This document shows, in pieces, positions 6,264-42,126 of a stretch of DNA of 64,000 nucleotides; the stretch's first letter is position 1, and the number at the start of each line of letters is the position of its first letter. Location: sequence record OR992645.1; one strand, 5' to 3'. Below the pieces are notes generated by a model. The model did no database searches, was not told where the DNA came from, and was given only the letters and a program-made list of their open reading frames with translations. The position numbers and the translations under genes are program-made. The DNA is from Escherichia phage EI-SP-GF.

Positions 6264-8009
6264 ATGGCGCAAGACATGACAAGCTTCGAGCAGGCGGTAG
6301 ATCAAGTAATTGTTGATTCTGAACGTTTGCACTTGGTTGTCAACGGTAACGCTGTGGATGAAGTTGTCGTAGAGGATGGGACCACTATCCCTACGGTACG
6401 AAAAGCCATGCTTGACAACCTTTATTTTAAAACGCCACCGATCCCTTGGGCGTATGGTGCATCCACAACAGTTTTTAACCAGCTGTATGAGTTTAAAGGA
6501 GATACAGGCCCTCAGTGGTGGTACGCTCCAGCAGCGTCAAAATCTAACCCGGTTAGGATGCCAGCAGATCCTTCACAATCTCCGAACTGGAGATTATACA
6601 CCGACTCTGCAGTAATGGCAAAATACTACGCAAAACTTAACAGCCCAAGGTTCGAAGGTGACCCGAGAGTACCTACACCTCCAATGGATGATAAGTCCGA
6701 GTCTATAGCAAACACAGAGTTTGTTGTTGACTATGTGGATAGCATATTTAAAGCCATGGAGGGGATGAAAGTTACTGTAGGATCTTTGGTGGTAAAAGGT
6801 CTTACAGAACTTGCTAACACTATAGTTGGGGGTACCCTTACCTTACACGGACCTGTTAATGGAGCAGATTCTACTGCACGCTTCAGGAACCTAATCCTTA
6901 CGGCAAATACTTCTACACTGACTTTTGCGTGGAGCGATCCTAAGCATGCAGACTGGAGAAGCACAGAGCTGCAACCTCATGAAGTATCAACTCACAGAGT
7001 TATAGCTGACACTATAACTTCTGGGAAACCAGTGGCTAATAACAACGATGTGCATTTTGATGGTCTAGGTAATAACTTTTTTGACTACGTGTACATTCGC
7101 GGTAATGCCATGAAGGCAGCCACCGAACCGACATTGCAGGTTGATGGGACCACCAGGGTTAAGAACCTTGAGGTGACAGGCACCGTTACAGGGATAACCT
7201 ACTCTGTAGATGGCACCATGATCTACCCTAGCTATATTGAAAGCACGGGAGATGCACTGATCAATGGAGATTTAGAGGTTGGCGGATCTATAGTCATTCG
7301 TGGCACAGCATCTGTCCAGAACATATCTTTAAATACTCTGAGGGTGAATGAGCGTGCCACTTTTGAAGGAGAAGGGCTTACAGCCAACAAAGGTGTAATT
7401 ACCGAGCTGACAACCACCACTTTAACTGCAACAACTGCAAACTCTGAAAACTGCAACGTTACCAGAAACTTGCAGGTAAATGGAGATGTTAGTTTAAACG
7501 CAGCAGGGACTGGCACCACCTACCTTCACAACCTTGAAATATCAGGTACAGTGACTGGGTGGCTGCCAGACTTCTCTAATGTCAACTTTGTCTGTAATGG
7601 CATTAACTCCAGTGGCAAGATAACCACCTCTCAAGAAATTGAAGCTGGTAAAACTATTACTGCCCCTGCTTTCCATGCAGGGAAGGTGGAGTTTGACTTA
7701 GAGGAGGCTGACGCATCTAGTGGGACATGGACACCTAACGGGCAGGCCAATATGTATGTTGTCCACGCGAAAGGGGACTTTACAATAGGGCAATGGCCTG
7801 GAACATCGGCTGAAGATAAACCTTACCCGTTCACTGCAATCATCTATGTCATTCAGGATGCTGTAGGCCACAACGTGACTTTACACGATAAATATGCCAT
7901 ACTGTCGGCTACTCCTGTTATTAACAACAAAGCCAACAGTGTCACCTTGCTACAATTGACATATTGTGGTGTTGGTGATATTGTGGATGTGGTTATTGCA
8001 CAACGTTAA
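6264..8009 (+). CDS. tail fibre / tail spike-like protein (581 aa)
   Basis: RBS AAGGAGA; repetitive G/T/V/N-rich beta-type segments (NLEVTGTVTG, TLTATTANSEN) typical of fibre shafts; terminator-like hairpin downstream. Confidence 0.5.
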   Translation: MAQDMTSFEQAVDQVIVDSERLHLVVNGNAVDEVVVEDGTTIPTVRKAMLDNLYFKTPPIPWAYGASTTVFNQLYEFKGDTGPQWWYAPAASKSNPVRMPADPSQSPNWRLYTDSAVMAKYYAKLNSPRFEGDPRVPTPPMDDKSESIANTEFVVDYVDSIFKAMEGMKVTVGSLVVKGLTELANTIVGGTLTLHGPVNGADSTARFRNLILTANTSTLTFAWSDPKHADWRSTELQPHEVSTHRVIADTITSGKPVANNNDVHFDGLGNNFFDYVYIRGNAMKAATEPTLQVDGTTRVKNLEVTGTVTGITYSVDGTMIYPSYIESTGDALINGDLEVGGSIVIRGTASVQNISLNTLRVNERATFEGEGLTANKGVITELTTTTLTATTANSENCNVTRNLQVNGDVSLNAAGTGTTYLHNLEISGTVTGWLPDFSNVNFVCNGINSSGKITTSQEIEAGKTITAPAFHAGKVEFDLEEADASSGTWTPNGQANMYVVHAKGDFTIGQWPGTSAEDKPYPFTAIIYVIQDAVGHNVTLHDKYAILSATPVINNKANSVTLLQLTYCGVGDIVDVVIAQR

Positions 8010-8057
8010 TATATCTGACCGCTCCTGACGGGGCGGTTTTCTTATCTGGAGAACACA

Positions 8058-8834
8058 ATGCTTCCAATCCCTTTGCTAAAACTTGGTCGTCATTTCCTCG
8101 ATAAGAGGGGTGGAGTTAAGGAACTTGCTGTTCTGTCATACCCAATAGACAACAGTGACGGTACAAGCACTACAGTAGCCTATGTAAATAGCTTAGCTAT
8201 ACTTTTTGACGATGGTCAGCTTAATATTACTGGCTATAACAAGTTCGGGGAGTGTCGCACTGGGGATCGTAACCCTATAAACTACCCGAGCGAGACGGCC
8301 TGGAATGTTGATCATGTGTGGAGAGCAGACCGTGCGTTTGTGATCCGGACTTTTGATAACCAGTTTTTCTACATCGGCTGCACTGCAGGTCTTATCGGAT
8401 CCACTGCGGCAGGTGGTAACGATGTTTGCGTAAACGAGTGGACACCTCTTCCGGAACAGATTGTTAAAGGATTGCACCTTGACACCCACCCAGAGCGCCT
8501 TATTGAGGTAATGGGAGGTATTAACAACACTGTCTGGGTTATTGCAGAGGCAGAAGGTACTGGCATACTGAACCTGTATGGGTCTGGTAACAACACCTAC
8601 GGATCTTTACATGTAGATAAAAACCAGCATGCAACTCCTGTAAAGATTGGTGAAACATCAGAAAATCCTGAAACAGGCCCTTGGAAAAACCCAAGTATCA
8701 ACTGCGAGGTGCATGACAACTCTGTTATTTTCGGTGGGCCTAGAGGTTTTTGGATTGCTGGATACGACTTTCTGAGAAACAACAGTAGAAACGACCTTGT
8801 TTGGCCCCTGCTCAGATTACTCGCAACGATTTGA
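8058..8834 (+). CDS. hypothetical tail-associated protein (258 aa)
   Basis: ATG with RBS TGGAGAA; 3' end overlaps the 5' region of the next long ORF in another frame. Confidence 0.4.
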   Translation: MLPIPLLKLGRHFLDKRGGVKELAVLSYPIDNSDGTSTTVAYVNSLAILFDDGQLNITGYNKFGECRTGDRNPINYPSETAWNVDHVWRADRAFVIRTFDNQFFYIGCTAGLIGSTAAGGNDVCVNEWTPLPEQIVKGLHLDTHPERLIEVMGGINNTVWVIAEAEGTGILNLYGSGNNTYGSLHVDKNQHATPVKIGETSENPETGPWKNPSINCEVHDNSVIFGGPRGFWIAGYDFLRNNSRNDLVWPLLRLLATI

Positions 8835-31387: not shown

Positions 31388-32152
31388 TTGAAATTTATCT
31401 ACAAAGACCACTACCACAAAGGTGTTGTGTGGAGTCTATTTGACGGGTCTGGTGGTGCAGTTATTGACTGGGCAAAAGCTGGGTACCTGTGCCTGTGCTT
31501 TAATGCAGAAGGTGCTGACCACGGTAGTTATGCAGAGGTGATAACCGATCATCCCAATATTCACTATGTGGATTATTGGATTGACCCATGGTTCCCTCAG
31601 GAAACTTTTTGCATGTACCCAGCTCCAGACTTTATTCTTGCATTTCCTCCGTGCACGCATTTAGCGGTGTCGGGTGCTGCACATTTTAAGAAAAAGCTGG
31701 CTAAGGACCCCCTGATCCAAATTAATGCTGTAAAGGATGCTCGGGTTGCGGAAGAGCTGGGAGAGATTTACGATTGCCCGTGGCATGTAGAGAATCCTGT
31801 TGGTGTTATGTCCACACTGTGGCGCAAACCTGATTACCGTTTTCATCCTTCTGACTATGGCGGGTATTTACCGGAGGATGATGTAAACCCCTGGTTTCCT
31901 GAATTTATAGCTCCACGTGATGCCTATCCAAAAATAACTTGCGGCTGGATAGGTAATGGATTTATAATCCCGGCCACAAAACCTGTCCCGCAAATAGTTG
32001 ACGCGGTTAGCGGGTATTCCATGCAACACGCCAAGCTGGGTGGAAAGAGTGCAAGAACGAAGATGATCCGAAGCCTCACACCACGTGGCTGGGCAAAAGC
32101 CGTATTCTTAGCAAATGAGCCTGTAGTAAGGAGCAGAATTAATGGGAAGTAA
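31388..32152 (+). CDS. C5-cytosine methyltransferase-like protein (short, PCT variant)
   Basis: Motif I-like SLFDGSGG, motif IV-like FPPCTHLAVSG, motif VI-like HVENPVG in canonical order; TTG start 7 nt after AGGAGA; only about 254 aa. Confidence 0.45.
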   Translation: MKFIYKDHYHKGVVWSLFDGSGGAVIDWAKAGYLCLCFNAEGADHGSYAEVITDHPNIHYVDYWIDPWFPQETFCMYPAPDFILAFPPCTHLAVSGAAHFKKKLAKDPLIQINAVKDARVAEELGEIYDCPWHVENPVGVMSTLWRKPDYRFHPSDYGGYLPEDDVNPWFPEFIAPRDAYPKITCGWIGNGFIIPATKPVPQIVDAVSGYSMQHAKLGGKSARTKMIRSLTPRGWAKAVFLANEPVVRSRINGK

Positions 32153-34220
32153 ATTTATGGCATCTGCATACAACCGTTTCGGTGAGCCAAACCCGAAAGC
32201 AACTAAGTATAAAAGTGGGGGAAGTGTGAAACGAGACTATCGTGATGAAAAAGAAGTTGAAACTGTAGAGACTGTTTTAGAAAATACTAAAATTGTCCCT
32301 GTTCCACAACAAAATATCGGACTGATGGCTGCACAGTATTTCGGTGTACGATCATCCCTATCCCAAGAGGATGGTGTAACTGTTACTGCCACCTACTTCC
32401 CGTATTATGACCGCTACGGTAATCTATCTGGCTTTAAAAAGCGTGACTGGACAATCCCTAAAGAGCAAAGGGGCCATTTCTCAGTTGTTGGCATAGTAAA
32501 AGCCAACTCCCAGATGTTTGGTCAAAAGCTGTGTGCATCTTCCAACAACCGTAAGCAGATTAACGTTTGTGAGGGAGAAGGTGATGTTATTGCAGCATGG
32601 CAGGCTGCATATCAGGTGCAAGTAAAAGGAATTCTCACCAATGCTAAAGCCCCAGCGAAGGTGGAGCAGTGGGCTAAAGAGGTCCAGGATGGGATCGATG
32701 CAGTTATCAACGGCGGCGATCTTGCAGGAAAACCCTGCCTACCTTTTGTTGGAATTAACTGCGGGTGTGCAAACGCAGTAGACACTTTTGCGAACAATGA
32801 GAAATTTATCCGTAGCTACGGAACAGTAGTCCTTGCAATGGACAACGATGCAGCTAACGAGGTAGAGAAGCAAAAACACGTTATCAAAGGTGTTGAAGCC
32901 ACACATAATATCGCGGCATTTTTGATGGCTGATAACGTTTACCACGTGGAATACCCCAGTGAGGTAAACGACCCTGACGGTGTAAAAGATATCCGTGACA
33001 TGCTGAAGGCTAAAAAGCTGGAAGATATTGTCAACATGTTCCGTCACCCAGTCAAATATGTGCCTGATGCTGTATCTGATTTAGAAGACTTCTCCATTGA
33101 ATCTCTTCGTAAGAAGACTTCTAATGGCGTAGATATCAGCGCGGAGTTCCCTAAATTGCAGAAGATGCTGAAAGGACTTCACAAAGGCACCTTGATGATG
33201 CTGACAGGCCCATCTGGCGGTGGTAAAACAACTGTAGCCAAGAAACTAGAACACTGCATTGCAAAATACTTGATGGATCCTACATGCCCTAAAGCCGATG
33301 ATTATGAAGAGGATGATCGCCTGTGTCTGATTCACCTTGAAGAGGACCCTGAGGAAGCAATTAACTCTCTATACGCCAACCAGTTGGGGTTTGATGTTAA
33401 AGAGTTTGTTGAAGACCCTAGTCAGTTCCTGACTGATCAGGAGCATGCTGAGATTCACCAATCTTGGGCCAAGGCTGGAAAAATCAAAGTGTTCAAGCAT
33501 TTTGGGTCTATTCCTGTAGATGAGTTGATCACTAAGCTTAAACAAATGGTGTGTCTGTATCACTGCCGTTATATTGTGCTGGATCACCTATCCATGGTAA
33601 TTTCAGGGCTTAATGTTAAGGATGAGCGAAAAGAGCTGGACATGGCTATGACCCAACTAGCCGCGTTCTGTAAGCAGTTTAATGTATTTATCTTGGTGAT
33701 CGCTCACCTGAAACGCACAGAGATTGTGCCTCCAAAGGACAAGGATGGGAATCCGTTACCTTTCTGGTATCCTGTACGAAAAGAGAACCTTCGAGGTAGT
33801 GCCGGATTGGAGCAACTTAGCTGGGTAGTTGTTGGGGTGGAGGCAGAAGAGATGGTGGATCGTTCCCGTGGACGTGTCCGACTGGTAGGTCTTAAAAACC
33901 GCCCAGCAAAAACGTTAGGCATTGCGGATACCTTAGTTATGGATCCTCACACAGGTAAGTTCCATGATGCCAGCAATTGGTACTGGGACAAAGAAATGCA
34001 GATGTTCACAGACGGCGAAGGCGGGGAGGTTGTTTGGAGACCTCAAGCTATGTTTGAGGATCAAGAGCACGCAGTTGTAGAAACACCTGTAGGTAGGGTT
34101 GTGGCTGATAAGGTTGTAACTCCTACTGTTAACCCTGTTGACACACAAGAAGACCTTCCGTATGATGATCCGTCCTCTGACCCTGTTCCCGGTTTTGAAG
34201 ACGATGAAACACCTTTTTAA
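32142..34220 (+). CDS. primase-helicase (TOPRIM primase fused to DnaB-like helicase)
   Basis: TOPRIM-like CEGEGD and LAMDNDAANE; helicase Walker A LTGPSGGGKTT and Walker B YIVLDHLSM; arrangement as in T7 gp4-type proteins. Confidence 0.65.
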   Translation: MGSKFMASAYNRFGEPNPKATKYKSGGSVKRDYRDEKEVETVETVLENTKIVPVPQQNIGLMAAQYFGVRSSLSQEDGVTVTATYFPYYDRYGNLSGFKKRDWTIPKEQRGHFSVVGIVKANSQMFGQKLCASSNNRKQINVCEGEGDVIAAWQAAYQVQVKGILTNAKAPAKVEQWAKEVQDGIDAVINGGDLAGKPCLPFVGINCGCANAVDTFANNEKFIRSYGTVVLAMDNDAANEVEKQKHVIKGVEATHNIAAFLMADNVYHVEYPSEVNDPDGVKDIRDMLKAKKLEDIVNMFRHPVKYVPDAVSDLEDFSIESLRKKTSNGVDISAEFPKLQKMLKGLHKGTLMMLTGPSGGGKTTVAKKLEHCIAKYLMDPTCPKADDYEEDDRLCLIHLEEDPEEAINSLYANQLGFDVKEFVEDPSQFLTDQEHAEIHQSWAKAGKIKVFKHFGSIPVDELITKLKQMVCLYHCRYIVLDHLSMVISGLNVKDERKELDMAMTQLAAFCKQFNVFILVIAHLKRTEIVPPKDKDGNPLPFWYPVRKENLRGSAGLEQLSWVVVGVEAEEMVDRSRGRVRLVGLKNRPAKTLGIADTLVMDPHTGKFHDASNWYWDKEMQMFTDGEGGEVVWRPQAMFEDQEHAVVETPVGRVVADKVVTPTVNPVDTQEDLPYDDPSSDPVPGFEDDETPF

Positions 34221-34278: not shown

Positions 34279-37056
34279 ATGAGTATGTGGTCTTTCGACC
34301 TGGAGGCCTCTGGTTTACTAGAAGACCTAGATCTTTATTATCACTGCGGCTTGTTTAAAGAGCTGAATAAGAACCGTTTTATGCTGTTCCTTCCTCTAAA
34401 TGACCGCACACACTACTCTGAAGAGGATATAGAGAAGGCTAAGAACTTTATTCTGGCAAAGAAAACTCTTTATAAAGATTTTGAAGTTCGCATAGCAGAT
34501 TTTTCAGAGTTGGAAGGTTGGCTTACAGGCAATTCTGACTGGTCACCCACAGCTTTGAACTGCCACAACTGCTACAGCTACGACTTTATGCTGATGGAGA
34601 GATTGTCCGGTATTCATTTTGATATGTTCCGTGACCCTAAGTGTATGGGGACTATCAACGACCACCAGGTTAATCTGTTTGATACGTTGGCGATGAGCCG
34701 AATCTTGTGGCCTGATCGCCCTTTACCAAAAGGTTGTCCGGACTCTGTATTCAACCCGGTTACTAAGAAAATGCAGCCTGTTGGTCCTCACGGACTTATG
34801 GCATGGGGCTACGCCCTTGGTAACCAGAAAGTTCAAATTGATGACTGGCGCGATCTTCCGTTGTGGAAGTATGTGGATCGTGTATTCGAGGACGTTATCA
34901 TCCAGGAGCTGCTCTGGAAAGAGCTGGTAGCGGAATCAAAAGGTGTATTCTACGGCAAATCTGACATGCAGAACTTTATGTACGATCCAGCCAAAGAGAA
35001 GCCGAAAGGGTTCAAGAAGATCACCTGGAAGAACGCATTACGTCGAGGCATGCTGCAGCACTTCCTGATGGAGCTGCAGGCCCGTCAGGGTGTATACTTC
35101 GACATAGATGGAGCTATTGCTTTACGTGACCGTTGCGATGCGTGGATGAAAGAAATAGCTGATCGTGTTGAACCACAACTGCCTTTAAAAGAGCTGTCAA
35201 TGTCTCAGCGGCCCAAGTTCCCTGAAAAGCCGTTTAACCAAGACGGGACAATCTCTAATAATGGTTGGAAATGGTTAAAAGATAAGCTTGGCTATCCTGT
35301 AGACATGAGCGCTTTAGAGTTCAAAGCCCCGCCTAAGAGAGCATTTACCTCTACAGGGGATGTCAGCAAGATGGGGATAAAATGGTGTGAAGAGATGGGC
35401 TGCAAAGACCCCGATAAGATGGCTGATTTCTTGAGAGGCTATATTAAGGGCACTTCCACACCACACCCTTTGCCTAAAGAGCTGATGGATCAGGCAATAA
35501 GTGATCTACAGCAGAAGCGAATGCCGGACTGCAAGATACCTATGAAAATCAGCAATCAGGACGACATTAAGCGGTATCTGATCAGCGCTGGCTGGCTCCC
35601 GACAATGTGGAGAACTAAGGATGTAACTAAAGACAGCAAGAAGAAAGCTCTACCTGATGCAGATGTTGATGCACGAGTATATGCTTATATGGACGAGCTT
35701 TTAGAGTCAGAGTATTGTGACCTAATTATCAACTTCTGGAACAAAACTGATGCTAAGTTCCAGACAACCGTGCACAAGTTCCGAAGCTTTCCTAACTCCG
35801 AAAGGATTAAAAAGGAAGTGTTCGGGAAAATACGTAGAAAAGCCAGGGCACTTATTACTTCTCCGCAACTGAAAGATACGTTTGGACACCTGTGTCCGAA
35901 TCTTGAAAAATTGAACGGAGAGATGGCTAAAGATATCGTCTTGTGGTTATCATTGCGAAACCGCAGATCGGTCCTTGACCCAATCAAGGAGGATAAGGTT
36001 GATACTGGTCTTCTTAATCACCCACGTTTGAAGATTGACCATAAGCTTCCTGCTAAAAGTTCTGGGCTAACAAACACTTCCAGACAGAAACACAGTATTT
36101 GTGCAAACATGCCTAAACCATCTCCTAAAGTGGTTATGGGTAAAGAGATGCGTAGTCTATGGGGTGTTCCTCCTGGATACTTTCAGATCGGTATTGACGG
36201 GTCCAACTTAGAGCAGCTTATCGGGGCTTGGGGTGCCTTTGAGTTCGACAACGGCCTGTATTATGATGTTGTAAGTAACGGAGACGCACACCAAAACAAT
36301 GCTGAGGCATATACAAAAGTAGCAGGCAGAGAGGTGTCCCGTAACGACGGTAAACCTATCACGTATGGTGTTATGTACGGGGCACAAAAAGATAAAGTTG
36401 CAGATATGCTGGACATCTCTCCAGAGTTGGGGCAAAGGGTAATAGATGCACTTTGGGATGCCAACCCCGGTCTTAAGGGGCGCAAAGAGGATCTGGAGAA
36501 ATTCTGGGAAGCAACAGGTAAGAAGTTTATCTACTCTTTTGACGGTCATGCTATTTGGACACGCTCTAAACACTCTTTGCTTAATGCATATCAGCAAAAT
36601 GGCGGTGCATCACTGTGTGACCTAGTTGGGATACTCATGCACCACCAGATGGTGAAGCGTGGATGGTATGATGAGGGTGTTCGTCGTATTATCTATTACC
36701 ATGACGAATATCAGCTTCAAGTGCCTGACACACCTAAGTATAAAACCGTATACACCTTCGACACAATTGAAGAGCTGGAAACATTTAAAGCCCAACAAGA
36801 GGCTAAACTTCATGTGTTCGACGGTCATAAGTACAAAAAGGCACGCAAAGATGAGGACGGAAACGAAGTGGTTGACAAGGATGGAAATACGGTATACGAT
36901 CCTATCTTGAACGATGACGGAAAGCTTGAACTTATCTGGAGCCCTGTGGGCGAAATGGTGGTGCATTGCTTCTGGCAGGCTTCTAAAATGATGGGCGTTC
37001 CGTTCCAGATCACAGGTGAATACTTGTGCGGTCGTAACTGGGGCGATTGTCACTAA
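34279..37056 (+). CDS. family-A DNA polymerase with 3'-5' exonuclease domain
   Basis: Exo I-like FDLEASG near the N-terminus; motif B-like R..GK.ITYGVMYG; motif C YYHDEYQ; 925 aa. Confidence 0.75.
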   Translation: MSMWSFDLEASGLLEDLDLYYHCGLFKELNKNRFMLFLPLNDRTHYSEEDIEKAKNFILAKKTLYKDFEVRIADFSELEGWLTGNSDWSPTALNCHNCYSYDFMLMERLSGIHFDMFRDPKCMGTINDHQVNLFDTLAMSRILWPDRPLPKGCPDSVFNPVTKKMQPVGPHGLMAWGYALGNQKVQIDDWRDLPLWKYVDRVFEDVIIQELLWKELVAESKGVFYGKSDMQNFMYDPAKEKPKGFKKITWKNALRRGMLQHFLMELQARQGVYFDIDGAIALRDRCDAWMKEIADRVEPQLPLKELSMSQRPKFPEKPFNQDGTISNNGWKWLKDKLGYPVDMSALEFKAPPKRAFTSTGDVSKMGIKWCEEMGCKDPDKMADFLRGYIKGTSTPHPLPKELMDQAISDLQQKRMPDCKIPMKISNQDDIKRYLISAGWLPTMWRTKDVTKDSKKKALPDADVDARVYAYMDELLESEYCDLIINFWNKTDAKFQTTVHKFRSFPNSERIKKEVFGKIRRKARALITSPQLKDTFGHLCPNLEKLNGEMAKDIVLWLSLRNRRSVLDPIKEDKVDTGLLNHPRLKIDHKLPAKSSGLTNTSRQKHSICANMPKPSPKVVMGKEMRSLWGVPPGYFQIGIDGSNLEQLIGAWGAFEFDNGLYYDVVSNGDAHQNNAEAYTKVAGREVSRNDGKPITYGVMYGAQKDKVADMLDISPELGQRVIDALWDANPGLKGRKEDLEKFWEATGKKFIYSFDGHAIWTRSKHSLLNAYQQNGGASLCDLVGILMHHQMVKRGWYDEGVRRIIYYHDEYQLQVPDTPKYKTVYTFDTIEELETFKAQQEAKLHVFDGHKYKKARKDEDGNEVVDKDGNTVYDPILNDDGKLELIWSPVGEMVVHCFWQASKMMGVPFQITGEYLCGRNWGDCH

Positions 37057-37107: not shown

Positions 37108-37392
37108 ATGGTAGTAGAACCAACAAAAACATTTACCTCCATGACTATCCCTGTCATTATGCAGGTAGAATGCGTTCAGGTGTCCCAAGTATGGCCCGGT
37201 ACTAAAATTCCAACAGGACCTGATTTCTTTCAGGTTGGCAAAGTGTACAATGTCTGGAAGGCACCAGATTGTTATCCTTTCATTAAAGATGACCGTGGAA
37301 TGCTGTGGTATCTTGGAAATGATTTGACACTGCACCTTGGGAATGCTATTATTGCAGTATTCAGACTTAACAAGAAGGAGACTGATCAATGA
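37108..37392 (+). CDS. small protein, member 1 of a tandem paralogous family
   Basis: Shared pattern GKxY...KDD.G..WYL with the next two genes; RBS GAGAGGAGA. Confidence 0.4.
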   Translation: MVVEPTKTFTSMTIPVIMQVECVQVSQVWPGTKIPTGPDFFQVGKVYNVWKAPDCYPFIKDDRGMLWYLGNDLTLHLGNAIIAVFRLNKKETDQ

Positions 37393-37616
37393 CGACTTTG
37401 GTTAAAGCTACCTTTGTAGAAGAAAAGATGACAGACCTGTCATTCTTTAAAGAAGGAAAGACCTACGAGGTTTATTACGATAAAGCTCGTGCAAATAAAA
37501 TGATTAAAGACGAGGAGGGTATCTCCTGGTATATCTCCCATCTGGCAAATGGTGAGTATCATATCTATGGAACCACCCTACTTGCCAAGTTTGTAGCTGT
37601 TGAAGAGGATCTATGA
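37389..37616 (+). CDS. small protein, member 2 of the tandem paralogous family
   Basis: GKTYEVYYD...KDEEGISWYIS; ATGA coupling. Confidence 0.4.
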   Translation: MTTLVKATFVEEKMTDLSFFKEGKTYEVYYDKARANKMIKDEEGISWYISHLANGEYHIYGTTLLAKFVAVEEDL

Positions 37617-37807
37617 AAGTAAAGTATCTGGCTGAAGGTATGAGTAGGTATTTTACCCTTGGAGAAGAATATTGGCCCTTTACAAGTAACGGCGATGTCT
37701 ACGTGAAAGATAATTTCGGTACGCCGTGGTTTTTACACTCTAACGGGTTAGGATATTCTATTTATCGCAGTGCAATGAGTAACACAACCCTTGCAGAGTT
37801 TGTATAG
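37613..37807 (+). CDS. small protein, member 3 of the tandem paralogous family
   Basis: GEEYWPF...KDNFGTPWFLH; ATGA coupling. Confidence 0.4.
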   Translation: MKVKYLAEGMSRYFTLGEEYWPFTSNGDVYVKDNFGTPWFLHSNGLGYSIYRSAMSNTTLAEFV

Positions 37808-37817
37808 AGGAGGTAGA

Positions 37818-38189
37818 ATGTTAGTAAAAGGTACCCACACAGTCAAACAGCGTATTGAAGTTGAGATTGATGATTGTGAGCTGAAGCATATTCTACGGTC
37901 ATGCTCTAACGTTTTGCTCCTTAGTATTCTCCAGGAGCGAGCGGAGAACGAGTTCTTAAATGCACTGGCAGGCCACCCTGGCGACTTCTGTGTGCGTAAA
38001 CGTGGAAATAACAAGCCTTGGCTATGGGAAATTGATGCCAGTTGGGATTACCACAAAAATGAAGGCATAGACGAACCTATCCGAGAGCTAACCGAAAATG
38101 AGGTTCAGATGTATGAAGATGTTTGCCAATGGGCAAAAAGTCAACAGACCTATCTCGATCCCTGGTGGATGATTGAAAATAGTCGTTGA
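37818..38189 (+). CDS. hypothetical protein
   Basis: ATG after GAGGAGG RBS; 123 aa. Confidence 0.4.
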   Translation: MLVKGTHTVKQRIEVEIDDCELKHILRSCSNVLLLSILQERAENEFLNALAGHPGDFCVRKRGNNKPWLWEIDASWDYHKNEGIDEPIRELTENEVQMYEDVCQWAKSQQTYLDPWWMIENSR

Positions 38190-38265
38190 CAAGAAGTAAG
38201 ATTAGATATAAGATGCTCCACACAAATAGGGAGTTGATTTTTAAACAATTGAGGAGACTGCTAAA

Positions 38266-38520
38266 ATGAAAATTACTTTGAAGCCAGAATGCGTTGCAAA
38301 TGACCGAGCTTTTAAAGATTGCACACTCGGTGCAATTTATGAAGCAGAGTTTTGTGAGAACCCTCTGGTAAAAGCCCTTCTGGAAGAAGGAACCTGTTTA
38401 TCACAAGAAGAACTTGATGAGTTGGAAAACTCGGCCCAGTGTCTTACCTTTAAAGATGATGAAGGGGATTCTGTCTGGTGCACTGTTAACGAAGTAGTTT
38501 TTGTAAAACCTGAGCATTAA
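38266..38520 (+). CDS. small protein, related family member
   Basis: KPECVANDRAFKDCT...FKDDEGDSVWCT parallels the next gene's product; RBS GAGGAGA. Confidence 0.4.
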   Translation: MKITLKPECVANDRAFKDCTLGAIYEAEFCENPLVKALLEEGTCLSQEELDELENSAQCLTFKDDEGDSVWCTVNEVVFVKPEH

Positions 38521-38583
38521 TACTTGACAATAGAGATGGGGTCTAATATAATGGCCCTATCAAAACGAAAGGAGACCACAGCA

Positions 38584-38856
38584 ATGACCAAACAATATCA
38601 ACGAATTAAAGCCAAGGTTAAGCCAGACTATCTGGAGAAGGACTCTGCTTTTCGGGACTGCACAGCAGACAAAATTTACACAGGGGCCGTCCTGCTAAAC
38701 GATGAATTTGAAGTGGATGTGCTAGGTAAGGAGGCTACTATCAAGGATGACCAGGGAGATTATGTTTGTTGCACCACCAGAGAGCTGGAGGTATTAGAAT
38801 ACTTCGGTGAAATCTTCACCTCTCTTGATGATTACTTAGATGACGAGGAAGCGTGA
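38584..38856 (+). CDS. small protein, related family member
   Basis: KPDYLEKDSAFRDCT...IKDDQGDYVCCT; start taken at ATG (MTKQYQ). Confidence 0.4.
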   Translation: MTKQYQRIKAKVKPDYLEKDSAFRDCTADKIYTGAVLLNDEFEVDVLGKEATIKDDQGDYVCCTTRELEVLEYFGEIFTSLDDYLDDEEA

Positions 38857-39257
38857 TGAAAAACATTTGGGATATTAATATCTTTGAAGCCTCTGAGCTT
38901 GACGGTGCCGATGGAGTTATTATAGTCTCTGATGGAAAGGCAACATTGACCTCTGGACTGACCTATGAGGACACTACCTACGCACTGGGAGATCTTGCCT
39001 TGTTGAAATCCACAGGTGACTCTCTGGAAGAACGTCTGCAAGGATTTGCCTTTAAAGAAGGCACAAGCACCACACTGATGTGCACTACACGCACTGTTCA
39101 GTTGGGCAACGGAGTCTATATGGTCATTGCAGTGTGCCCCAAATTCAGCAACATCAATAAAGATGATGCTGACGCTGTCAACGACGTGGTTGTCCTCTTC
39201 GTTGGTGACGCTATGGCAGATCTGATGAATGCAGGAGAAGCAGCAAATGAAGACTGA
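38853..39257 (+). CDS. hypothetical protein
   Basis: 134-aa ORF, ATGA coupling. Confidence 0.4.
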   Translation: MMKNIWDINIFEASELDGADGVIIVSDGKATLTSGLTYEDTTYALGDLALLKSTGDSLEERLQGFAFKEGTSTTLMCTTRTVQLGNGVYMVIAVCPKFSNINKDDADAVNDVVVLFVGDAMADLMNAGEAANED

Positions 39258-39549
39258 AAACATAAACCCAACAGGGTTCTTGAAAGTATACCGTGAACTG
39301 CTGTATACTACAGAGGACAGTGTTCTAGAGTATCCAGAATACCTTTTGCTGTATAAGTATCTACAGGAAGCTGGTGAAAATCTACCAGTTAGTGCAGAAG
39401 GCGGTCCGAACTGGATATACAGCGCATGGAGAAAGGTTGACATTCTCCCAGATCCAGGAAAAGATATGGTAGTTTGGCAGCTTATCAACAACATCGGGAT
39501 TCCAATCTTTGATGAAGCTGTTAAAATCTATTTTGAACTTGACGATTAA
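39247..39549 (+). CDS. hypothetical protein
   Basis: Start at ATG (MKTENI) with AGGAGA RBS. Confidence 0.4.
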   Translation: MKTENINPTGFLKVYRELLYTTEDSVLEYPEYLLLYKYLQEAGENLPVSAEGGPNWIYSAWRKVDILPDPGKDMVVWQLINNIGIPIFDEAVKIYFELDD

Positions 39550-39566
39550 TATCAGGAGACCTTAAG

Positions 39567-39812
39567 ATGGCTGAAGTAGTTGCTCGCGCAGGACAGAAAG
39601 TACGTTGTGTTGAAGTAGGTTTTGGTGGCAAAGGGTGTCAAAACTTGACTCAAGGTAAGGAATACACTGTTGTTTCTGGTGGTGGTGACGAAAGTATTGT
39701 GTTCGATGACCATATTCTGGATGTTGAAAACTTTGAAATAATTGACGATGATGGTGATCCGATCACCTGCCTGCTGAACGGGAGTTGGGGCACTTTCGAA
39801 GTAATTGGCTAA
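39567..39812 (+). CDS. small protein, possible distant family member
   Basis: 81 aa; GKEYTVV...DDGD pattern; RBS AGGAGA. Confidence 0.35.
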   Translation: MAEVVARAGQKVRCVEVGFGGKGCQNLTQGKEYTVVSGGGDESIVFDDHILDVENFEIIDDDGDPITCLLNGSWGTFEVIG

Positions 39813-39849
39813 TAAATAGCTGTTGTAATTTACAGAAGGAGATGCTAAA

Positions 39850-40260
39850 ATGGTGTCTCCTTTATGTTGTTCAAATAAAATCGGAGATTCCACAATGGAA
39901 CAAATGAACGATCAAGCGTCGGTTGCGATGAACGAGCAAGAACAACCTCAAGAATTTTTCTTAGGGTTAAGCAAAGATCAAGTGTCTCTTCTGCTGGTAC
40001 TTTCTTCTTTTATGGGAAGACTTCAGGAGCTCACACAACAACCAGAGGCTGAACAGTTATTTCAGGCTCTGCGCGAAGAAGAAAAATATCGTCGTTTGGA
40101 TTATGCCTTAGGTTGGGTAGCTCAGCAACGAGATATGCTAATGGCCCTTTCTGGGACGACAAGTTTTGCAATGGGCCTGTTGGCTCAAGTGCAGGACAAA
40201 TTAATTCAAGCAGGGTTTGCACACACAGCAAACACCAACGAAGAACAAGGAGACAAATAA
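39850..40260 (+). CDS. hypothetical protein
   Basis: 136-aa ORF, RBS AAGGAGA. Confidence 0.4.
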   Translation: MVSPLCCSNKIGDSTMEQMNDQASVAMNEQEQPQEFFLGLSKDQVSLLLVLSSFMGRLQELTQQPEAEQLFQALREEEKYRRLDYALGWVAQQRDMLMALSGTTSFAMGLLAQVQDKLIQAGFAHTANTNEEQGDK

Positions 40261-41531
40261 TGAGCGTTATTCAACAATTTGCCAACCCGATGAATCCGCG
40301 TGAAACTGTTTTACTGGCTCACGGTATGATTAAACGTGTCAGCATCAAGCCCATTAAAGGTGCTGATCCTACAACAGGTATTAAAACCACTGTGTGGCAA
40401 GGTAAGAAAATTGAATCCAGCCACACCATCTCTTTACTGATTTCTGAACTGGACTCCTCTGATAACCTGCTCCAAGGTGGTGAAGAAGTTTGGATCAGTA
40501 TGGGTGATAAACTGCTTAAGCATGGTCATCAAGACTCCGTCTCTGTTAAAATTGACGACAAGTGGGAAACCGTAACGCCAGGATGGATCGTAAATATCCC
40601 TTTGAAGGCAAACGAGCATAACGGCAAGACCTACTACAAAGGCTCACTGGCTAAAATGGTTAAGTTGGGGGCAGGAGAGGCTCCAGCAGCGCCACAGCAA
40701 CAAAAACAGCAACAAGGCACACAATCACAAGGCCAGAAGCAGAAACCTCAGCAGAATGCCAATCAGGACGTTTTACGCATCTATGGTGATGTGACTCAGA
40801 TTGTTGGCAACGTGGTTACTGTCAATGATCACAAGATTGGTGAAGGTGCTATGGTTGTCACGGATGAGCAGCTTAAAGACCTGGTGGTAGGTGGTCGTGT
40901 TGCAGCCATTGTTGACAAAGACACCGGAAACATTATCAGTGGTTTCAAAGCCTACCCACCTAAGGCAGAGAACGGTACACAAGGTTCTGGTGGTAAGCGT
41001 AAATCCTCTTACGACCCCATCGGTGTAGAGACAGGGCACAGTATCAATGCATTGCAGATCATCCTGGATCGCGGGTTTAAGATTGACAGCCCTTTAGATG
41101 TGGCTAAAACACTGCACGTGGTCACCATCGAGCTTAAGAAAGAGTACGCTCAAGCCACTAACCGAACTGAAGATGAAGTAGGTGCCAGTGTTGGTAATGC
41201 GGTATTGAACGCTTGTCGCCGTATTGACAAGAAAACGAAAGTTGATGATTTTGCAGTAGCAATTACTGCAGAGGCAAAAGATGTCTTGACTAATCTTGCT
41301 GAACCGTTGTATGATTGGATCAAGAACGGTGCTGGAGCCACTGACCATCAAGAGCCTCAAGCTGCCAAACAGGAAGCCGCCCCACAGCAAAACACTGTAG
41401 ACGCTCCTCCTGTAGATGATGCGGAAGACGACCCGATGGATCAGAATCCGGCACAGTACGACTTCTGTGATGACATACCTTTCGCTCCGGTAGGTCTGCA
41501 ATATGGTAAAAGTAGAATCTACGCATTGTAA
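40260..41531 (+). CDS. putative ssDNA-binding protein with Gln-rich linker and DDIPF motif
   Basis: Start at ATG overlapping the upstream stop (TAATG); low-complexity Q-rich linker; acidic C-terminal region containing DDIPF about 17 residues before the end; sits between polymerase and nuclease-like genes. Confidence 0.4.
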
Positions 41532-42126
41532 GAGGTGCATCAAGTGCGGAGAGGTGAAAAACCTCTCCGAGTTCTACAAACATCCAAAGATGGCTGACGG
41601 TCATCTTAATAAGTGCAAAGAGTGCTGTAAGAAGGCCAGCAGAGAGGCTGACCAGTTTTCCCACAACTCTTCGGAAAAAGGTGTAATACGCGTGCTGTAC
41701 AAGTCTCAAAAGTGCAACAGCAAGCAAAGAGGTCACCCTCCTCCGACTTACACCAAAAAAGAGTTTAAGGAGTGGCTATACCTAAACGGTTACAAAGAGT
41801 TGTATGATCAGTGGGTAGCCAGCGGATACGACAAAAGGAAAAAGCCTTCTTGTGACAGGATAGATGATTTCAAAGGGTACTCTTTTGATAATATCCGTTT
41901 AACGACTTGGGGAGAAAATAAAGATAAGCAGACGGAGGATATTCTGTTGCATAGAAGCACCAGCGGTAGACGGTGTAAAAATGTAAGGAGGCTGGACATG
42001 AATGGCAACGTTCTTAAAGAATGGGTATCCCACAATTCTTGCCGAAGAGAAACAGGGATATGTGTTGATTACTACATTCATGAAAAAATTCCAGCTCCCG
42101 ATGGATACCTCTATGAATACTTCTAA
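41503..42126 (+). CDS. HNH-like (degenerate) endonuclease / zinc-finger protein
   Basis: N-terminal CxxC...CxxCC cluster; later CDRIDD...[12 protein letters not shown] resembles an HNH core with the His replaced; start uncertain. Confidence 0.4.

Follow-up and report, generated by a model that had tools for sequence, protein, structure and literature searches.

Tandem paralogous genes for small proteins with predicted SH3-related barrels beside the DNA polymerase gene of a Vequintavirus

A cluster of small genes lies at positions 37108 to 39812 of a 64,000-nucleotide stretch of Escherichia phage EI-SP-GF (sequence record OR992645.1), which is called the window here. The 3.4-kb region around the cluster matches 117 phage records at 80-96% nucleotide identity, all from rV5/FV3-like Vequintavirus myophages of E. 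coli, and by this measure the window is a Vequintavirus (rV5/FV3-like) genome. All genes of the cluster are labelled as hypothetical proteins in RefSeq and GenBank. Six of them, A1, A2, A3, B1, B2 and E, are the subject of this study, and they are arranged with an intervening gene (X) and a promoter as follows.

37108-37392, plus strand: A1, 94 amino acids; predicted A-family small beta-barrel with a longer N-terminus and beta1-beta2 loop; PHROG 12922
37389-37616, plus strand: A2, 75 amino acids; predicted A-family small beta-barrel; PHROG 12623
37613-37807, plus strand: A3, 64 amino acids; predicted A-family small beta-barrel; PHROG 12802
37818-38189, plus strand: X, 123 amino acids; intervening gene outside the family; PHROG 6273
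38266-38520, plus strand: B1, 84 amino acids; predicted SH3-like barrel with a two-helix insertion between beta2 and beta3; PHROG 12544
38524-38552, plus strand: sigma-70-type promoter upstream of B2 (TTGACA, 17 nucleotides, TATAAT)
38584-38856, plus strand: B2, 90 amino acids; B family, with a shorter insert and an acidic C-terminal tail; PHROG 11936
39567-39812, plus strand: E, 81 amino acids; PHROG 4927 type with an insertion between beta2 and beta3; putative distant superfamily member

The A1/A2 and A2/A3 junctions are 4-nucleotide ATGA overlaps, in which the downstream start overlaps the upstream stop. Shine-Dalgarno sequences, or good ribosome-binding sites, are present for the whole gene set, including A1-A3, B1, B2 and E.

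Two groups of paralogous genes

Pairwise similarity was assessed by comparing Smith-Waterman scores with those of 2000 shuffles. The B1-B2 (z = 12.7), A1-A2 (z = 10.5) and A2-A3 (z = 5.6) pairs all have scores that none of the 2000 shuffles reach, and A1 and A3 (z = 3.0) are tied to each other mainly via A2. Profiles made from ortholog alignments of nine Vequintavirus loci were also compared with hhalign, which yields probabilities of 95.5% for B1-B2 (P 1.4e-8), 76.5% for A1-A2 (P 2.2e-5) and 22% for A2-A3 (P 9e-4). In PHROG scans, all six proteins have full-length matches to their own PHROGs (E 1e-26 to 1e-67), and cross-matches are reciprocal for A1 with A2, and for B1 with B2 (2e-5, 5e-6).

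Because shuffle z-scores, hhalign and reciprocal PHROG matches agree, both groups are considered real: by these comparisons A1, A2 and A3 are paralogs and B1 and B2 are a second paralog pair, each far beyond chance. The arrangement is that of tandem duplication, with A1-A2-A3 contiguous and B1 and B2 adjacent as same-strand neighbours at z = 5.6-12.7. An initial annotation, made from the letters of the window, had described the three coupled tandem genes as one related family and 38266-38520 with 38584-38856 as a second related pair, and had proposed pairwise and profile alignment of the six products as a check. The open reading frames are present on the plus strand at the coordinates it gave, and the alignments bear out both groupings. 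Gene X has no significant similarity to A, B or E in shuffles or hhalign, and hhalign likewise indicates that X and three neighbouring genes listed below (C, D and F) are unrelated to the six genes (P >= 0.05).

A wider superfamily and its predicted fold

An exhaustive HMMER search of 1.84 billion representative proteins with an A-family profile recovered divergent single-domain relatives (P0087, P0092 and P0096), as well as proteins that carry 2-5 tandem repeats of the domain (P0089, P0091, P0094, P0095, P0098 and P0099). Four other candidates, P0088 (ankyrin), P0090 (beta-helix), P0093 (fn3) and P0097 (Vgb-lyase-like), were dropped as spurious short-motif matches. A hidden Markov model (HMM) was then built solely from repeat units of unrelated metagenomic proteins, leaving out the window sequence, and was used to search 1837 open reading frames from the window and four distant loci. 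The top four matches are A2 (E 2.5e-8), A1 (3.8e-7), A3 (5.3e-7) and gene E (3.9e-5). The next open reading frame has an E-value of 0.073, and B2 and B1 are found at 1.5 and 14. The matches to the A genes are partly circular because the repeats were found using the A profile; the match to gene E, given how the profile was built, is independent of this circularity.

Direct comparisons of gene E with the other five gave nothing significant (z <= 3.5 among 45 pairs, hhalign <= 5%). The shallow A, B and E profiles used in direct hhalign runs align only the DDxG turn, and enriched profiles were needed. With these, the outside repeats match A at 97% and the superfamily matches E at 89-94% (P 2e-7 to 2e-6), and controls comprising X, C, D, F and reversed decoys have P >= 0.025. 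PHROG scans further reveal that P0099 and P0091 carry E-type repeats (PHROG 4927; 1e-23 and 2e-18) beside PHROG 3523-type repeats in the same chain, and that P0089 and P0098 match the A3 and A2 PHROGs (P0089 to the A3 PHROG at 3.6e-6). Since the outside-repeat profile matches it significantly in both hmmsearch and hhalign, gene E is judged to be a distant superfamily member, on the side of the A-type domain and not of the B pair. The suggestion in the initial annotation that 39567-39812 might be a distant relative thus holds, but its placement with the B pair does not, as the profiles group it with the A type.

A1, A2, A3 and E each represent a stand-alone copy of the same phage domain, which is widespread, uncharacterised and roughly 60-75 residues long. 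As tested, this GKxY/DDxG small-barrel superfamily comprises PHROGs 3523, 4927, 3249, 10169, 12623, 12802 and 12922. Pfam holds no significant family for A1-A3, B1, B2 or E and none that covers the superfamily, gene D being the only one in a family, and the genes' own PHROGs are unannotated. HMM scans of the rest of the 64-kb window found no further copies, and word-indexed protein searches together with an IMG/VR scan returned Vequintavirus sequences only, with no diversity beyond the genus.

Two of the repeat proteins come from distinct genetic settings. P0098 (L018 6001-6615) consists of two domain repeats fused to DUF3310 on a phi29-like 17-kb contig. P0095 (L017 6001-7167) has five domain repeats and is carried by a 60-kb element with genes for ArdA, a resolvase and a ParM/Alp7A-like protein.

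The A2 protein was modelled with AlphaFold2 from a 21-sequence alignment with high confidence (predicted local distance difference test score (pLDDT) 90, predicted template modelling score (pTM) 0.77). The model has strands at residues 3-10, 25-31, 36-40, 46-48, 56-60 and 64-70, with a short helix in the long beta1-beta2 loop. This predicted fold corresponds to the six-stranded beta-barrel of Gp54 from Escherichia phage Bas11 (JohannLBurckhardt; PDB 9AXB). The B1 model, which is of moderate confidence, shows an SH3-like barrel that carries a helical insert, and the models contain a five-stranded barrel that can be superposed on SH3, KOW or Mib-HERC2 domains. The initial annotation had recommended structure prediction as a test for a common fold. 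In the model, the GKxY...DDxG..W motif marks structural positions: GKxY begins beta2, DDxG makes the turn of the beta3-beta4 hairpin, and the conserved Trp sits on beta4. A Foldseek search of BFVD finds the A2 fold (template modelling (TM) score 0.7-0.8) in numerous small proteins that are uncharacterised, chiefly in name only, from Drexlerviridae and further enterobacterial phages, as well as in some DUF3310 proteins of Enterococcus phages.

On the basis of these models, the domain is a six-stranded, SH3-related beta-barrel of which Gp54 is the sole solved representative. Gp54 has a very rare topology and an unknown function, and it is non-essential (Zhang et al., Nature 2024, PMC11578894). 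It directly activates the fused toxin-antitoxin CapRel-SJ46 as an alternative trigger, binding after partial unfolding, and close Gp54 homologs fail to activate CapRel (PMC11578894). Gp54 has been described as lacking known relatives other than close T1-like homologs.

The relation of the B pair to this superfamily is less firm. Enriched profiles match the superfamily to B at 46-59% (P 9e-5 to 2e-4) over 44-46 columns, and the alignment runs through beta1 and beta2, over the B insertion and up to the DDxG (beta3) turn. Gene E has an insertion at the same point as B, and PHROG 17459 is weakly matched by B1, B2 and repeat protein P0095. These findings are suggestive of shared ancestry of the A and B families (59%, P 9e-5 at best), and B1 and B2 are probably a divergent branch of the A/E superfamily. 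We give appreciable but lesser weight to the alternative that the B pair is an independent SH3-like family with no A/E homology, whose KDDxGD and GxxY motifs are convergent beta-hairpin features. In its favour, direct A-B and E-B profile comparisons reach probabilities of <= 2%, with only 13 residues around the DDxG turn aligned, and the outside-repeat HMM scores both B proteins weakly. However, the P-value obtained with the enriched profiles is about 250 times below that of the best control, and the shared PHROG 17459 match and the common position of the E and B insertions also speak against it.

Conservation, turnover and expression of the cluster

The same gene order and three A genes are kept in the 9 isolate-type Vequintavirus loci inspected, and 111 isolate records with an A2-like gene have one A2-like place each. 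Two uncultured lineages, L015 and L016, were located by way of the A1-like protein P0050. In L016 the polymerase shares 99.9% identity with that of the window, whereas the A1 allele shares 74% and the A2 allele 42%, and there are 4 A-type genes. L015, whose polymerase is 90% identical, has 7 A-type genes. Its B1, B2 and E proteins are 66%, 45% and 59% identical to those of the window, versus 84-92% for the SSB-like protein, primase-helicase and polymerase. An extra 67-amino-acid A-type copy is absent from the 111 isolate records, and a search of 50,697 genomes of isolate phages gave no match to it. The comparison of copy number in relatives called for by the initial annotation thus gives A arrays of 3 genes in the isolate-type loci and of 4 and 7 in the uncultured lineages. 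HMM scans found no family members downstream of the polymerase in Mydovirus, Certrevirus, Henunavirus or ICP1 (L002-L005).

Ratios of nonsynonymous to synonymous substitution rates (dN/dS) were estimated by the Nei-Gojobori method. The medians are 0.01 for A1, 0.16 for A2, 0.09 for A3, 0.10 for B1, 0.07 for B2 and 0.14 for E, compared with 0.02 for the polymerase, 0.05 for the SSB-like gene and 0.04 for the primase-helicase. A1 is among the most constrained genes of the region. With dS of 0.2-0.65, the maximum pairwise dN/dS is 0.38. Because the medians are 0.01-0.16, A1-A3, B1, B2 and E are real genes under purifying selection. They evolve several-fold faster than the replication core, and they turn over by recombination, seen as allele replacement in L016, and by duplication, seen as copy-number change.

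The rapid divergence proposed in the initial annotation is supported, both by the A1 and A2 alleles of L016 beside a nearly unchanged polymerase and by the dN/dS values of A2 and E relative to those of the polymerase and the SSB-like gene. The accompanying proposal of an arms race with a host factor fares less well. Copy-number and allele turnover are seen as this would require, but purifying selection prevails throughout, and an arms race is plausible but not shown.

Expression signals were also found within the cluster. The promoter between B1 and B2 (38524-38552) matches the sigma-70 consensus perfectly, at 12 of 12 positions, and other promoter-like matches (10-11 of 12) precede A2 and B1. 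Both hexamers of the B2 promoter are perfect in 9 of 11 Vequintavirus loci and the spacer is variable; conservation of the hexamers alongside a variable spacer points to selection on the promoter itself. Some records annotate a longer, TTG-start version of B2 that the promoter overlaps, and the ATG at 38584 is therefore favoured as the true start. In rV5, the polymerase and these genes share a long transcription unit, and sigma-70-type (host-type) promoters have been reported genome-wide (PMC3606486).

The neighbouring genes of the cluster are as follows.

32142-34220, plus strand: primase-helicase
34279-37056, plus strand: DNA polymerase, 925 amino acids
38856-39257, plus strand: C
39229-39549, plus strand: D, a Pfam DUF7238 member
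about 39895-40260, plus strand: F
40260-41531, plus strand: SSB-like gene (label of the initial annotation), 423 amino acids

Several local features of these genes and their relatives were recorded. The polymerase gene is undivided in the window, whereas in FV3, rV5_ev146, APECc02 and several metagenomic relatives it is split into 809- and 118-amino-acid parts by an inserted gene for a 168-amino-acid HNH homing endonuclease. Among the small genes of the cluster, D is the best conserved, with 96% identity even in L015; its match to DUF7238 scores 30.6 bits, against a gathering score of 27. Both the Shine-Dalgarno sequence of gene F and its first ATG (39850) fall within a hairpin with a 13-bp stem (39835-39863), and other annotations begin this gene at the downstream ATG (39895). 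Between the SSB-like gene and a 138-amino-acid gene, a 207-amino-acid open reading frame with a Cys-rich N-terminus (41503-42126; no Pfam match) is present in the window and in L016 and absent from FV3, rV5_ev146, ECP2303 and APECc02. It looks like a mobile insertion and is possibly a homing endonuclease.

Within the A array, both L015 and L016 carry an Ead/Ea22-like 200-amino-acid gene and a 63-amino-acid gene inserted between A1 and A2 (7274-8069 in each). In the A1 ortholog of APECc02 (P0034; L013 3207-3524), a segment of 11 residues within the beta2-beta3 region is duplicated in tandem (APDCHPFIKEK / APNCYPFIKDD).

Candidate roles and comparison with known systems

We consider it reasonably probable that these genes form a small accessory cluster of tandem Gp54-like or SH3-like barrels within the replication-gene transcription unit, with a role in protein binding. 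By analogy with SH3-like domains and Gp54, the products may be small accessory factors that act on host or phage partners. The domain has no catalytic signature and is repeated like a binding module in other phages. The proteins would then be non-enzymatic binding modules transcribed from host-type promoters, each binding a host or phage protein as an accessory host-takeover or counter-defence factor. The copies came from tandem duplication, and other phages have the same domain duplicated within one gene (2-5 repeats). As is the case for Gp54, phage growth in the laboratory may not depend on the proteins, and bacterial sensors of the CapRel kind may be able to detect them.

Several points weigh against this reading. 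Literature searches turned up neither functional work on these genes of Vequintavirus nor a function for Gp54. The Gp54 link is one of predicted fold only, and convergence on a small barrel is possible: no sequence similarity to Gp54 was detected, since HMM searches of PDB sequences with three profiles gave no match to 9AXB at E <= 10 and hhalign gave P 0.26-0.5. The B-to-A link reaches 59% at best, and positive selection was not detected gene-wide by Nei-Gojobori dN/dS. In addition, a role in replication or nucleotide metabolism accounts no less well than host interaction for two observations, namely that the genes lie between those for the polymerase and the SSB-like protein and that P0098 has the domain fused to DUF3310.

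The last of these points leads to the main rival, in which the small SH3-like or OB-like barrels are accessory factors of the replisome or of nucleotide metabolism. They would tune replication of the phage DNA by binding to DNA, to RNA or to one of the replisome proteins (the polymerase, the primase-helicase or the SSB-like protein), and host factors would not be their targets. Besides the location of the genes, this proposal draws on the domain being sometimes fused to DUF3310, as in P0098, where the fusion partner of the two copies is a domain common to PHROGs annotated as nucleotide kinase, and on the gene neighbourhood of P0098. The neighbours of P0095, which include genes for a deoxynucleoside monophosphate (dNMP) kinase, a nucleoside deoxyribosyltransferase and an RNA ligase, point the same way. 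However, no copies are detectable at this position in ICP1 or in other genera of the Vequintavirinae, although these share the polymerase and primase-helicase, and therefore the genes are not part of a conserved replisome. Copy numbers of 3 to 7 and whole-allele swaps beside near-identical polymerases also argue against such a role, as does the non-essential nature of Gp54, the structural match (PMC11578894). We thus view a replisome or nucleotide-metabolism function as possible but rather unlikely.

A more specific version of host interaction is that the array is an expanding repertoire of Gp54-like barrels, in which each paralog would neutralise or decoy a different host factor in counter-defence or host takeover. 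Targets might include CapRel-type sensors that open the barrel and bind its core, and duplication, allele replacement and intragenic repeats would diversify the binding scaffold. We regard this scenario as unlikely as it stands. If true, phage proteins of the immune interface would include a large class, so far overlooked and defined by the Gp54 fold, with members in Drexlerviridae, Vequintavirinae and phages of Gram-positive bacteria.

That the similarities are due to chance, or that the open reading frames are non-functional remnants, is very improbable. Small protein size and the low number of invariant residues in the motif speak for it, but shuffle z-scores rise to 12.7, an independent outside profile singles out these frames among 1837, dN/dS is 0.01-0.16 at dS 0.2-0.65, ribosome-binding sites and translational coupling are conserved, and the A2 model is of high confidence.

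The genes and their PHROGs are already present in databases as hypotheticals. To our knowledge, based on the literature searches made, three aspects are new: the assignment of A1-A3 and E by profile comparison to one superfamily with intragenic-repeat relatives, the prediction that this superfamily takes the Gp54(Bas11) fold, and the range of 3 to 7 copies in the A array. This places four or more genes from a common genus of E. coli myophages, together with many multi-repeat proteins of metagenomic origin, in a sequence superfamily with a predicted Gp54 fold, giving an orphan CapRel trigger a much larger structural family and annotators of Vequintavirus genomes a concrete label for six hypothetical genes. 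The occurrence of 3, 4 or 7 copies and of swapped alleles beside near-identical polymerases is a natural experiment on barrel binding, with practical impact limited until a function is found.

Among known families, PHROGs 12922, 12623, 12802, 12544, 11936 and 4927, the multi-repeat PHROG 3523, and PHROGs 3249, 10169 and 16833 are all of unknown function. PHROGs keeps these families separate and unannotated, whereas the weaker cross-matches found here would join them into one domain superfamily, whose two forms, tandem genes or intragenic repeats, were derived in this analysis. Pfam DUF7244 (PF23896) is weakly matched by gene E (15.6 bits) and repeat protein P0095 (21.8 bits), both below the gathering score of 27, and is not matched by A1-A3 or B1-B2.

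The predicted barrels can also be likened to the SH3-like barrels of RecD SH3, FeoA, the DtxR/ScaR C-terminal domain, eukaryotic SH3, Mib-HERC2, KOW and the retroviral integrase C-terminal domain. The A type differs from these by an extra sixth strand and a long beta1-beta2 loop, and has neither a sequence relationship to them nor a signature for binding proline peptides.

Comparison with Gp54, whose sequence was taken from Bas11 (MZ501085.1), reveals 14% identity, and Gp54 belongs to PHROG 7421 and matches that PHROG alone. The hhalign register sets A2 FFKEGKTYEV opposite Gp54 IFKKGIEITI, and GISWYI opposite GLTWKV, such that the conserved Gly and Trp of the A family lie opposite Gp54 G24 and W43. 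Bas11 is a T1-like siphovirus, whereas the present phage is a Vequintavirus. In Bas11 this one homolog was noted, with its neighbouring genes outside the comparison, whereas the present phage has a tandem array.

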